From the NCBI GenBank assembly GCA_963719035.1, contig CAVRAO010000012.1, forward strand, positions 160,001-224,000: a DNA stretch of 64,000 bases, read 5' to 3'. A program made the position numbers and the translations under genes. The DNA is from Methanobacteriota archaeon (GTDB lineage Archaea > Halobacteriota > Bog-38 > Methanoflorentales > Methanoflorentaceae). A model generated the notes under the pieces. The model worked only from the letters and a program-made list of their open reading frames with translations. It did no database searches and was not told the DNA's origin. Below are positions 5,065-50,501 of the stretch, in pieces. Position 1 is the stretch's first letter. Each line of letters begins with the position of its first letter.

Positions 5065-5457
5065 TCAGTCTCGGCTCATATAACGATCCCATTCTATCTC
5101 ATATTCGCGTGGTGCAGGCTCTTCTTTATGCTCCCGTTCAGCTTGTCGACCTAGCTCTTGATATCGCCTCAATTCCATTCCCAAAAAATATCGATTTGCG
5201 TCCTCAACTAAGCCAGCAACCGCATTCCAACAAGCACCGTACTTTCTTATTGCCGCCGCATCTTTTTGGCATTTATAGCAGGCTATTTTGCCAATAATAT
5301 TTACATTCGCCTTCGCAGGGGCTTTTTTTTCGAAGTAACTCTTCCATTCGTCGGGTGGTGTGTTAGATAAAATATAAGGGACCATGACTTCATTCTCCGA
5401 GTGCTCCTTGATGTGACCATGATCAACCTCTAGAATAGTAATCTCTTTAAATCCCAT
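5065..5457 (-). CDS. hypothetical protein
   Basis: 130-aa ORF with GAGGT SD upstream of ATG; protein-like composition. Confidence 0.65.
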   Translation of the reverse strand: MGFKEITILEVDHGHIKEHSENEVMVPYILSNTPPDEWKSYFEKKAPAKANVNIIGKIACYKCQKDAAAIRKYGACWNAVAGLVEDANRYFLGMELRRYQELGRQAEREHKEEPAPREYEIEWDRYMSRD

Positions 5458-21978: not shown

Positions 21979-22569
21979 TTAGAGTCTCTTTACCTCTTCT
22001 GTCTTAGGCTTACGTCGAAACAGGCGATCCCTCAATGATCGTTTCGGCGGTTCCTCATCGATCTCTGGCAGGGGTGCTTGCACTTCCTCAGCTTCTACCT
22101 CATCTTGGGTTGATTGCAAAGGTGAAGACACAGGCTGCGGTAGCAAGCGAGTAAGGGCTTCGCTTACGTCCGCGAGCCGGTCAATGACCTTGCTAGACTC
22201 ACTCCCATAGAATCCTGCAATGGTCTCATACCGTTTGATCTCATCCTCGCGCGCCAGTTTAAAGCTCTCGTACTGCGCTGTCAGCCTCTCTATCATATCC
22301 GTTTTCATGAAAAGGAGCTCTTCCTTATGATGCAGCTCCCTTTCCCGCTTTTCCAGTTCTGTTTCTAAGCGAATCACCGTGTCACGTGGCACCATTAGTG
22401 TTTCGAGGCGTTTGTCTGCAGTATGCCCATTGGCCCGTGTTGTGCCTAGATATGTGTCTAGTGCCGTAGTAACGATTTTACTCCGACTGCTATTTTCGGA
22501 CCGTGCCTGCTTATCAGCAGCGGCCAAGAGCTCGTCTGAAATGGCAATAGTAACCTTGTTTAATGGCAT
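21979..22569 (-). CDS. ribbon-helix-helix (CopG-like) protein with coiled coil
   Basis: N-terminal KVTIAISDELL...SRSKIVTTALDTYL; heptad region; C-terminal RSLRDRLFRRK. Confidence 0.75.
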   Translation of the reverse strand: MPLNKVTIAISDELLAAADKQARSENSSRSKIVTTALDTYLGTTRANGHTADKRLETLMVPRDTVIRLETELEKRERELHHKEELLFMKTDMIERLTAQYESFKLAREDEIKRYETIAGFYGSESSKVIDRLADVSEALTRLLPQPVSSPLQSTQDEVEAEEVQAPLPEIDEEPPKRSLRDRLFRRKPKTEEVKRL

Positions 22570-23070
22570 CTAACCCCTCACAATCACAATAAAAGGGCAT
22601 ACGCGTCGTTAGCTAATTAAGTCACACCATAGTATGACCGCTTCATACTTGAGTTTATTGTGGGTCAACGGAGTTTTCCACTAAATGATTCGCACTATTT
22701 CCGATGCAAATTCCAAAACTTATTTTTTAAAAAAAGCTATTTTAGTGGCCTAAACGCCAAAATAACGAAAAAAAAAGCTATTTGCTAAATCTAAATCGCT
22801 TGATTACCCTTTTGAACAAACGGGACGCTTAAATAGCGTCGTTGCTACCGCTCGCTGCTTCAAGCTAAAACGGCAGTCGAAATGGAGCTGGAAACTATTT
22901 ATAACGGTTTTAGTATCATCAGCGAAATGAAATTCTTTCTGTTGGGCCCAAGAAACGAGATTGAGTCGTAAATACGGCCAGAATGTGCTTTAATTGTCAA
23001 AATAAAAATCTTAGCGCAATCGAATACCCCTATTTCGAGTCCAGATTTCAAAAAGAAGGATAAAATAGAA

Positions 23071-23088
23071 ACGAAATCGTTAAATATT
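23071..23088 (+). promoter_or_regulatory. BRE/TATA of duplicated ncRNA copy 1
   Basis: cgaaatcgTTAAATAt, conserved at 48674-48689. Confidence 0.65.
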
Positions 23089-23111
23089 ATCAAAGTGAGG
23101 TTTATTGTGTC

Positions 23112-23190
23112 GATGCAGCGGGAGCCGGGCCGCGCCTAAAGGCCCTACCTCAAAACGCGCTCTTTTCGTTTGGCGGGCCCGTGCTCCACG
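23112..23190 (+). ncRNA. candidate small structured RNA, copy 1
   Basis: GGAGC-CGGGCC pairs with GGCCCG-U-GCUCC; no ORF; paralogue at 48721; T-rich downstream; ends approximate. Confidence 0.7.
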
Positions 23191-23269
23191 TTGGTCGTCG
23201 CATGTTTTCGATATTTTCTCTTCTTTCCTTTCGTTATACTTTTCGATTTGTTACAGTGAGTTCTATGTG

Positions 23270-23812
23270 CTAACGACGATTCCAAAATCGCGAAAAGGTG
23301 CTCTGCGATCGAGGTGATTCTTCAAAACTGTGCATAAAAAAAAGCTTAAAGTACGAGCCGTCTATTTTTTTTCTCATGATTACCTTGAACCCTAGCCTTT
23401 CATACATAGCTAGAGCTGCTTCATTGGTCTCCCACGTAGTGATGAGTGATGCGTCCATTCCATCTTGGAAGAGCTTTGACATCGCGAATTGTACCAATTT
23501 TATTCCAATACCGATTCGTCGAAACTCAGGGAGCACTGCGAGCGTTTCTATGAGACCGAGTTGTGGGCGTCTGTAGTTATAGATGACAGCTACGACGCCA
23601 ATGACTCTCTCGCCGTCCACTGCCTTGATCCAACCCCGCCGCCTATCGTTTAAGATCCGTGTTATTTTGACGCGCAAATTCTCACCGTCGGTAAGCGGCG
23701 GCACAAACTCGTTATTGACGACGTTGAGCAGGTTGAGGATGTCGTTAAAGTCGTTCCAGTTCGCTTCACAAATTGTGAACGTCTCGAGCGGTTCCAGCAA
23801 TCGCATTACCAT
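23270..23812 (-). CDS. GNAT family N-acetyltransferase
   Basis: LAVLPEFRRIGIG (motif A), NEAALAMYERLGF. Confidence 0.92.
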   Translation of the reverse strand: MVMRLLEPLETFTICEANWNDFNDILNLLNVVNNEFVPPLTDGENLRVKITRILNDRRRGWIKAVDGERVIGVVAVIYNYRRPQLGLIETLAVLPEFRRIGIGIKLVQFAMSKLFQDGMDASLITTWETNEAALAMYERLGFKVIMRKKIDGSYFKLFFMHSFEESPRSQSTFSRFWNRR

Positions 23813-48107: not shown

Positions 48108-48673
48108 CGCTCAAAAAAGAAGCTTTTCTTTCAACTTTTTGGATGTTTTCAGCAGGATAAATTACTTAATTTTCGTGACTGCGGCGTGCGGAACGCGATA
48201 CATGTGTCGCCTTACTTAATTCACACCGCAGTATGAATCAGCCACACCTCTCCATATCGAACGTTCCCCTAGTTTTTCCACTCAATAGTTTCCGCTGTTT
48301 CCTCTGCATTTTGTGTCAGAAGACTGAGGTGGATAACGTATCTGAATGCCCGGATAGCGAAATTAGAAATTATCTCTTGACGTTTTTTTGCCTGATAGCG
48401 AGTAAAGCGCTTCCTGTTTTGACGGGGCCCATTGTGGCCTTCTTTCGTACTGGTCGCCACGTCACTTGGAAAATACAGTCGCAACGGAGCTCGAAACTAC
48501 TTAAAGCGGCCCTCTGGCGTGCGAAGTAAATCGCTTCTAATGGAGCGTTAGCGAGCCAATAGTCGCCTTGTGAATATGCGCGCACCGCGCCTCGTTTAGA
48601 AAAATAAAAATCTTGGTACGTTCAGACACCTTTATTGCGAGTCCAGATTTTAAAAAAAAGCGCAAAATACGAG

Positions 48674-48689
48674 CGAAAACGTTAAATAT
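48674..48689 (+). promoter_or_regulatory. BRE/TATA of duplicated ncRNA copy 2
   Basis: cgaaaacgTTAAATAt; same offset as in copy 1. Confidence 0.65.
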
Positions 48690-48713
48690 GATCTTGTAGA
48701 GCTTAATTATGTT

Positions 48714-48794
48714 GTGATTAACGGGAGCCGGGCTCGTGAATTGGCCTGCCTCGAAACACCGTCTTCTCTTACGGCTAACGGGCCCGTGTTCCGT
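48714..48794 (+). ncRNA. candidate small structured RNA, copy 2
   Basis: GGAGC-CGGGCUCG pairs with CGGGCCCG-U-GUUCC; inner UUGGCC/GGCUAA stem; followed by TTTTT. Confidence 0.7.
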
Positions 48795-49175
48795 CTTCGT
48801 TTTTAAATGTAGAGAATCTAAGTTGTTTTTTTCGTCTACAGATCTTAGAAATTCGTTTATTTTTAAACTATCTTTTTTTAGTTGGCAGCTGCTTAAATTT
48901 CTTCCGATTTTGTCTAGATATAGTCTGTTGAGACGCTTAAAAGTAAGTTAAGAAACGCCCAAGTATTTCGGAAGATTATCTCGAGAGCACGTGAATATAT
49001 CCTGTTAAAAATGCCGTTGCTATTATGAGGACCAATTTTAAAGTCTTTGCTCGTCTATTTCGCTGAGATCACTTGAAAATGTTCTTTGATTTCAAGAAAA
49101 TGCGCATTAAATCTAAATTGGTATATAACGCTCGAGGTAATGTATGTAACGCTATCACATAACGGAGGTGATTCA

Positions 49176-49487
49176 ATGACAGAAGCGAGAACAGTTAAAA
49201 GGATTCCTGTTGGGGCTGTGGCATTGATCGTTGCGGTGATTAGTGCTGTAATATCGTTCATTTATGGTATATTTTCAGCGGTTTTTATCCTTGGAGGCGC
49301 TGCAAGCATGAACACTATCTTGCCGGAAGGAGTGGGCATCGGTTCGGGTGCAACGTTAGGGATAACCGTCATCATCGCCGCTACTATTGGCGGTTTCATA
49401 GGCGGATACATTGTAACAGCAATCGCAGCACTCCTCTACAACTGGTTGGCCCCCAGAATCGGTGGTATCAAACTTGAATTCGAGTAA
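49176..49487 (+). CDS. small membrane protein (DUF3566-like C-terminus)
   Basis: GGAGGTGA SD; C-terminal LYNWLAPRIGGIKLE. Confidence 0.8.
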   Translation: MTEARTVKRIPVGAVALIVAVISAVISFIYGIFSAVFILGGAASMNTILPEGVGIGSGATLGITVIIAATIGGFIGGYIVTAIAALLYNWLAPRIGGIKLEFE

Positions 49488-50252: not shown

Positions 50253-50501
50253 GGCAAATAAAGTTTTTAACTGGGTGACGAGATAACATAAGCCGCTGAG
50301 TGCAATGTTTCAACTATACAATAAGCGAGAGCCATCTGGTCGCCGACTTTCAAGCGGGCGTGATTCACTCTCTCTTAGAGACTTCGACTTCTTCGCTCAT
50401 TTTGACTTTGCGGCAGCAGTCAGTGGCGCAAGCGATGCTTCCAAAATCAGGACGAGGTGCGGCCACACCGGCACTGCGTCGCGCACATGGAGGGGTCAGC
50501 C

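Follow-up and report, generated by a model that had tools for sequence, protein, structure and literature searches.

The window, the whole 64,000-nucleotide stretch of archaeal DNA analysed here, contains two related non-coding sites. Copy 1 lies between a gene with a ribbon-helix-helix (RHH) domain (21979-22569, minus strand) and a convergent GNAT gene (23270-23812, minus strand), and copy 2 is located after an MFS gene. The RHH gene encodes a CopG-like protein of 196 amino acids whose N-terminal ribbon-helix-helix is recognized by a Pfam RHH_1 match just short of the cut-off (E 6e-4). Of 17 genomes of the genus, 15 have it as a single-copy gene adjoining the site of copy 1 (unit A below), and it has a weak match in one of six sister-genus genomes.

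The 93 nucleotides beginning at 22999 and the 93 beginning at 48601 are identical at 72 positions in an ungapped alignment, exactly the value counted by hand in a first-pass annotation that had called the two sites homologous. The copy 1 93-mer was also scored against every other position of the window, on either strand: 22.9 bases are identical on average (standard deviation 4.4), and the next best 93-mer has 46. Both copies contain the box AGTCCAGATTT (23038-23048 and 48640-48650) and, further downstream, the BRE-TATA sequence CGAAA(T/A)CGTTAAATA (23072-23086 and 48674-48688), in the form in which these elements had been described. In copy 1, the upstream promoter region (22999-23071, plus strand) runs from AAAATAAAAATCT through ATTTCG-AGTCCAGATTT and a further 23 nt to the BRE, and the BRE/TATA promoter reads CGAAATCGTTAAATAT (23072-23087, plus strand), a motif found three times in the genome. 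The promoter region of copy 2 (48601-48689, plus strand) has the same box followed by the BRE/TATA sequence CGAAAACGTTAAATA.

The sequence CGAAAWCGTTAAATA has exactly three occurrences in the 2.19-Mb genome, always preceding a small RNA (sRNA) of class A (copy 1), B (copy 2) or C (described below). The upstream promoter region is kept in all three classes across species, and within the genome the arrangement of box plus promoter is unique to units A, B and C; a regulon search with the AGTCCAGATTT box returned no box-plus-TATA sites beyond these units. The upstream region at 22999-23071 is therefore a candidate site for a shared transcription factor, and classes A, B and C, through their common upstream box, are probably switched together by one such factor. 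The product of the RHH gene next to unit A may be regarded as a candidate for this shared regulator.

A hairpin begins about 20 nt 3′ of the TATA element, on the plus strand, in both copies. The predicted class A sRNA gene (23107-23203, plus strand, about 97 nt) matches R1, a covariance model built on alignment A2 (33 distinct sequences from the three classes A, B and C), at 103.8 bits, and its loop contains GGCCCUACCUCAAAAC and CGCUCUUUU. The predicted class B gene (48709-48804, plus strand) has a loop with UGGCCUGCCUCGAAAC and CGUCUUCUCUU and matches R1 at 67.9 bits over 48709-48808. The class A RNA folds into a single long imperfect hairpin in which the 5′ and 3′ ends are paired. As had been described from the two sequences, both copies carry a terminal stem, CGGGAGCCGGGC...GGGCCCG-U-G(C/U)UCC, with a bulged U, and both have the conserved pyrimidine-rich loop CCU(A/G)CCUC(A/G)AAAC.

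On the plus strand, the fold energy is -43.7 kcal/mol for copy 1 (z -3.07) and -32.2 kcal/mol for copy 2 (z -2.12), and the minus-strand folds are weaker, at -40.3 and -24.9 kcal/mol, respectively. RNAalifold applied to each class returns a common design (energy -40.6 for class A) with paired end nucleotides, a long stem with few bulges, and an apical loop of 26-35 nt. The apical loop of all classes contains an unpaired CU(A/G)CCUC, which appears at the DNA level as CTACCTC or CTGCCTC in 45 of the 49 members listed; most members have CUACCUC, and class B has CUGCCUC. A second C/U-rich stretch is usually found 3′ of the loop motif CU(A/G)CCUC(G/A)A.

Differences between homologues tend to preserve this pairing, as the first-pass annotation had observed for the two copies alone. 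Alignment A2, made with MAFFT and given a hand-set structure, has 83.5% of its cells paired, compared with 38.9-42.5% when the 3′ partner is slid. This alignment has 38 cells with double-sided change, a number reached by none of 500 shuffles, and nine pairs with such change, reached by 11 of 500. A second covariation test drew on 59 model matches representing 47 distinct sequences from all six classes of the family. Here 80.8% of cells are paired (36.3-41.6% with the partner slid), and double-sided change occurs in 20 of 27 pairs, which none of 500 shuffles reached. For four of five measures the observed values were unreached by 500 shuffles, and further pair types were reached in 20 of 500; the 47-sequence alignment was fitted to the covariance model, which favours structure. 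Because all of the sequences come from one genus, the independent covariation events are few and related. G.U pairs make up about 127 of 1203 cells in the 47-sequence set (sum of the per-pair table), and since these would be A.C mismatches on the opposite strand, the RNA would be read from the plus strand.

The distance between promoter and hairpin is nearly constant. From the start of the TATA-like hexamer to the hairpin model match it is 27 nt in 31 of 32 members of classes A, B and C and 26 nt in the other one. This spacing sets the predicted transcript start about 27 nt downstream of the first base of the TATA element, on the first paired bases (near 23107-23110 in copy 1). At the other end, a run of at least four T occurs within 20 nt of the match end in 21 of these 32 members (6 of 13 in class A, 10 of 10 in class B and 5 of 9 in class C). 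The T-rich tracts reported behind both copies are present: TTTT at 23205-23208 and again at 23214-23217 after the class A hairpin (23205-23217, plus strand), which is likely to be an archaeal oligo-T termination site, and TTTTT at 48800-48804 at the end of the class B sRNA. One class A subgroup has TTTC only, and terminator signals are weak there and in classes D and E.

The genes downstream of the sRNA differ from class to class, and since copy 1 is convergent with the GNAT gene, it is not the leader of a downstream gene. A riboswitch or other cis-acting leader was rejected on these grounds, given that in copy 1 the T-runs come before the convergent gene. The two sites had been interpreted as stand-alone transcripts rather than riboswitches, and the presence of their own promoter signals together with the lack of a controlled downstream gene agrees with that interpretation. 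The accompanying statement that the sites have no ORF needs to be qualified. ORFs are listed over both of them (23105-23317 and 48736-48951), but orthologues differ by one-base indels, which argues that these ORFs are non-coding. Judged by sequence signals only, each copy would thus form its own transcription unit, with a promoter, a discrete end and no protein-coding frame.

The two copies in the window have further relatives. BLAST of copy 1 against its own genome reveals a third copy at C12:138511-138642, 21 kb upstream of the window, and model R1 finds five members in this genome. These are the class A member (window 23107-23203, plus strand), the class B member (window 48709-48808, plus strand), the class C member (C12:138587-138683, plus strand), a fourth member with a related promoter and box (C12:296411-296507, minus strand), and a fifth with a different promoter (C2:204682-204772, minus strand). 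The homologous copies first proposed are real, but they number five in the genome and not two. Across the genus, the paralogues fall into six classes, each of which keeps its own chromosomal place in closed genomes, and the positions of the members are syntenic across species. The sixth class, D, is found in most other species 1.7 kb downstream of class B, after a flavin reductase gene (L095 2567-2664 in genome G010), and is absent at the corresponding place of the present genome (window approximately 50258-50457).

BLAST against 40 relatives yields matches in 16 of 17 same-genus genomes, several in each, and the closed genomes have them at equivalent spacings; the six sister-genus genomes and the 17 from other families have none. 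A covariance-model search of related genomes, which the first-pass annotation had proposed, gives the same split, with homologues in 16 of the 17 genomes from this genus and in none of the six from the sister genus. When R1 was run on an even sample of the phylum, all 13 genomes of the genus matched, whereas the five of the sister genus and the 132 others did not; this run used stricter filters, and absence from incomplete genomes is not conclusive. The contigs with matches come from peat bog and fen MAGs labelled as Halobacteriota, Methanomicrobia or Methanobacteriota archaeon. It is well supported by these comparisons that the two sites are members of a previously undescribed, genus-restricted sRNA family. 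Lineage-specific sRNAs are common, so the new family is no surprise in kind.

Matches to known RNA families were sought at several levels of stringency. Rfam at gathering score gives no matches in the whole window, and at E<=10 there are none in 22900-23300; in 22540-23010 only chance-level matches are obtained (E 2.6-9.3, 13-17 bits). The proposal that the family is new is upheld by this search, which included C/D box and H/ACA RNAs, Y RNAs and riboswitches. There are no tRNA or tmRNA genes in the window. Among the papers searched, none joins Methanoflorens with a small RNA; the family may have been published under another name.

Other identities were considered and rejected. The ends of MITEs or IS elements, which had been raised as a possible alternative, were looked for, and only A/T-rich inverted repeats of 14 nt are present; the five copies lie at syntenic places, and the sRNA sites have no plasmid or phage similarity. 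A replication origin is not indicated, as both Cdc6/Orc1 genes are distant (C11:25 kb and C12:308 kb), and two weak BLAST matches near Cdc6 genes are due to an A-rich word, and one of these matches falls within a coding sequence. The RNAs resemble the Y RNAs that are associated with Ro60 (Rsr) in having about 100 nt, paired ends, a long bulged stem, a pyrimidine-rich loop and an oligo-U tail. However, the loop of the new family is apical and not internal, there is no Rfam Y RNA match, and the TROVE/Ro domain (PF05731) has no matches in the present genome (91% complete), in a search whose control matched Deinococcus and Bacteroides.

The conservation around copies A, B and C extends well beyond the promoter. 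The protein genes flanking the copies are unrelated, as had been stated at the outset, but homology of the non-coding DNA around them continues for approximately 400-500 nt upstream of the promoter. This DNA contains conserved blocks in the same order in all three units, giving a module of about 600 nt. The outermost of these, block 1, is a structured element of 99 nt on the minus strand, divergent from the sRNA and about 400 nt upstream of it. In unit A, it is found at 22614-22712 (minus strand), about 45 nt upstream of the start of the RHH gene, where it matches a second covariance model, R2, at 86.8 bits. The block 1 element of copy 2 (48213-48312, minus strand, R2 match of 77.3 bits) has no gene after it and points at the 3′ end of the MFS gene, which is convergent with it, and R2 places that of class C at G000:C12:138092-138190 (minus strand).

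In hairpin H1 of block 1, one pair alternates between C-G and U-A (15:11), and the next pair occurs as four pair types. In addition, a UCAUAC strand has two possible partners, one upstream (84% of cells paired) and one downstream (89%), which gives two mutually exclusive hairpins. Many of the block 1 pairs are G.U pairs that are valid on the minus strand only, so the element reads best on that strand. Model R2 detects block 1 in 16 of the 17 genomes from this genus and in none of the six from the sister genus. Copies number exactly three per genome in the present one and in G010 and G017, the closed genomes that were checked, and each of these copies adjoins an A, B or C unit, about 400 nt from the sRNA. 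Block 1 was also considered as a small protein and rejected, because a short ORF exists in some species only, with a TAG at codon 5 here and a 1-nt indel between classes. The leader of a paralogous gene was likewise rejected; this would fit class A only, as B and C are without a downstream gene on that strand. In class C units of several species, tandem GTATGA/TCATAC inverted motifs with a CCCTAC-containing spacer occur beyond block 1 (L003 ~900-1130, corresponding to G000:C12 ~137910-138140).

Two further conserved blocks lie between the two structured elements, at 22846-22904 in copy 1 and 48476-48557 in copy 2. The first of them (ACGGCAGTCGAAATG.AGCT.GAAACTATTTA) exceeds the sRNA in conservation and has a BRE/TATA-like sequence at its end. 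The approximately 95 nt that follow it can, according to folding predictions for classes B and C, form a domain closed by GACGUC/GACGUC. Block 2 (22870-22904 in unit A), with the sequence ACGGCAGTCGAAATGGAGCTGGAAACTATTTATAA, ends in the BRE/TATA-like AGAAAC-TATTTATA. It is about 35 nt long and, at 90-94% BLAST identity from paralogue to paralogue and from species to species, the best-conserved part of the module. In copy 2, blocks 2 and 3 (48476-48557) consist of CAGTCGCAACGGAGCTCGAAACTACTTAAAG followed by GCTTCTAATGGAGCGTTAGCGAGCC. Blocks 2 and 3 may serve as promoters or as binding sites, or they may belong to another RNA. Neither the larger module nor its second structured element was part of the first-pass annotation, which also lacked the three other paralogues in the genome.

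The unpaired loop raises the question of which partner it might bind. The 16S rRNA ends in GGAUCACCUCCUAA, and the loop has ACCUC in common with the 16S 3′ end GAUCACCUCCU. With a CCUC core like that of the 16S anti-Shine-Dalgarno (anti-SD) sequence, the loop could pair with GAGG-containing sites, and translational repression by such pairing had been put forward for both copies. Potential sites are not enriched in the genome. The 11-mer target TTCGAGGTAGG, with at most one mismatch, is found 35 times, compared with about 35.5 expected, and five of the 35 are the sRNA genes themselves. Of 243 occurrences of the heptamer GAGGTAG, 18 (7.4%) are located 2-11 nt before the start of a long ORF, compared with 7.1% for GAGGTAA and 15.6% for GAGGTGA. 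The sole extended match at a start codon precedes a DEAD/Sec63 helicase gene, where GAGGUAG is kept in 5 of 17 genomes only, and at the site originally given as an example, before the gene at 5065-5457, it is kept in 0 of 6 orthologues. With sites that are not enriched and two candidates that are not conserved, the repressor mechanism is neither supported nor refuted; anti-SD pairing, which is read from the loop sequence, is plausible yet unsupported.

Some of the chance matches to the target 11-mer lie within repeated DNA. Identical contexts of 70 nt surround the matches at G000:C2:82019 and C2:83836 (minus strand), about 1.8 kb apart, and the same is true of the matches at G000:C5:28785 and C12:71241 (minus strand). 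These paired contexts represent repeated genes or elements.

The explanation that we consider reasonably probable is that of a lineage-specific family of sibling sRNAs whose loop pairs in trans with purine-rich, GAGG-containing sites in mRNAs. Each member appears to be transcribed alone from a strong archaeal BRE/TATA promoter. The RNA is predicted to fold from its first to its last nucleotide into one imperfect hairpin of about 95-100 nt, and in most members the gene would end at an oligo-T tract. The stem appears to change in a compensatory manner, while the apical loop of 26-35 nt would keep CU(A/G)CCUC(G/A)A unpaired. The loop would then be the working part, most likely pairing in trans with GAGG-containing sequences such as the ribosome-binding sites of mRNAs. 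Such pairing would alter the translation or the stability of the mRNA, and the effects of the several copies would add up, or the copies would be controlled differently.

A different role for the same RNAs, which we consider unlikely overall, is that of protein-binding decoys or scaffolds. In this case, the loop motif and the bulged GGAGC/GCUCC helix would be recognized by a protein, which the copies would titrate or deliver. One loop motif is indeed present in all six classes, and no enriched or conserved complementary target was found for it. Moreover, the core of the helix (alignment columns 21-24 with 104-107) is almost invariant, beyond what pairing needs, and classes A, C and F have all retained the 5′ GUGUCGAUGC despite a class-specific pairing partner. 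Set against these points, no candidate protein was found, the 91% complete genome has no Ro/TROVE gene, and no K-turn or box motifs are visible by eye. Known decoys have multiple sites, and by comparison an RNA with a single loop is a poor sponge. As regards function alone, a protein-binding role may stand equal to anti-SD pairing. Far less credible than either is an element that acts at the DNA level, such as a protein-binding or recombination site, an origin-related repeat, a terminator, or the remnant of a mobile element. In favour of such an element, the copies cluster on the same strand within 70 kb of one contig, and some blocks resemble by eye what we take to be archaeal origin-recognition boxes (TTCCAnTGGA-like). 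However, the G.U pairs are strand-specific, the promoter lies at a fixed distance, and the stem changes in sequence while its complementarity stays, unlike protein-binding sites. The remoteness of the Cdc6/Orc1 genes, the synteny of the positions across species, the lack of plasmid or phage matches, and the lack of terminal inverted repeats beyond the A/T-rich 14-mers also argue against a DNA element.

The larger module allows one more explanation, in which the hairpin RNA is only one output of a unit of about 600 nt that combines a sensing or switching RNA with an effector, or that serves as a regulatory region bound by the RHH protein. The ordered blocks common to A, B and C over about 500 nt upstream point in this direction, as do the three copies of block 1 per genome (the present one, G010 and G017) with the same genus limit as the sRNA. 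The covariation in H1 (15:11), the competing hairpins (84% and 89% paired) and the nearly genus-specific RHH gene also fit. Nevertheless, classes E and F carry the hairpin RNA without blocks 1-3, which means that the sRNA can exist alone. The complementarity between the sRNA loop and the block 1 RNA is no better than in shuffles (z 0.28, -0.97 and 0.81), and the shared blocks could reflect a recent segmental duplication plus promoter constraints. We regard this explanation as rather improbable. The same slim chance is given to its most explicit form, in which the A, B and C units would be self-contained non-coding regulatory modules of about 600-700 nt, held at their positions throughout the genus, each with a divergent switch or sensor RNA, an effector sRNA, and boxes read by the adjacent RHH protein. 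If true, these two-RNA modules would be an RNA-based circuit of a kind undescribed in archaea. The module around the three copies, with its competing-hairpin element, is the part most worth an experiment.

To our knowledge, few archaeal sRNAs have known families, and almost none of these come from the uncultured methanogens that drive peatland methane release. In bacteria, sibling sRNAs with a shared promoter box and a C/U-rich seed include Qrr1-5 of Vibrio, the csRNAs of streptococci and LhrC1-5 of Listeria. Like the new family, these have several paralogues per genome, a common regulator box, an identical unpaired seed and variable stems. They differ in being bacterial, with sigma-70 promoters and with Hfq or other chaperones, whereas the new family has archaeal BRE/TATA promoters. 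There is no homology between them, and the analogy is one of design only.

Closer in lineage are sRNA154 and sRNA41 of M. mazei (Prasse et al. 2017; Buddeweg et al. 2018, via PMC5867862), which are also stand-alone intergenic sRNAs of a methanogen with stable stem-loops. In the passages of PMC5867862 that describe them, loop 2 of sRNA154 and sRNA41 are said to mask ribosome-binding sites, and their anti-RBS loops are accordingly presented as proposed or shown to do so. The new family, in contrast, is found in a single genus of another lineage, as multi-copy siblings with one long hairpin each. No Rfam family of any kind matched the new family, and no relationship to the M. mazei RNAs emerged from that search.

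The present work defines a new multi-copy sRNA family by its coordinates, predicted ends, covariance-model alignment, shared promoter box and neighbouring structured element. Should the loop prove to mask ribosome-binding sites, archaea would have their first sibling-sRNA system of this type. If it does not, the invariant loop would mark an RNA-protein or RNA-RNA interaction specific to this lineage.

The region downstream of copy 2 contains a separate feature. Between the class B sRNA and the flavin reductase gene lies an ORF of 133 amino acids (window 49086-49487, plus strand). It has no Pfam match, and its counterpart in another species of the genus is approximately 65% identical at the nucleotide level.
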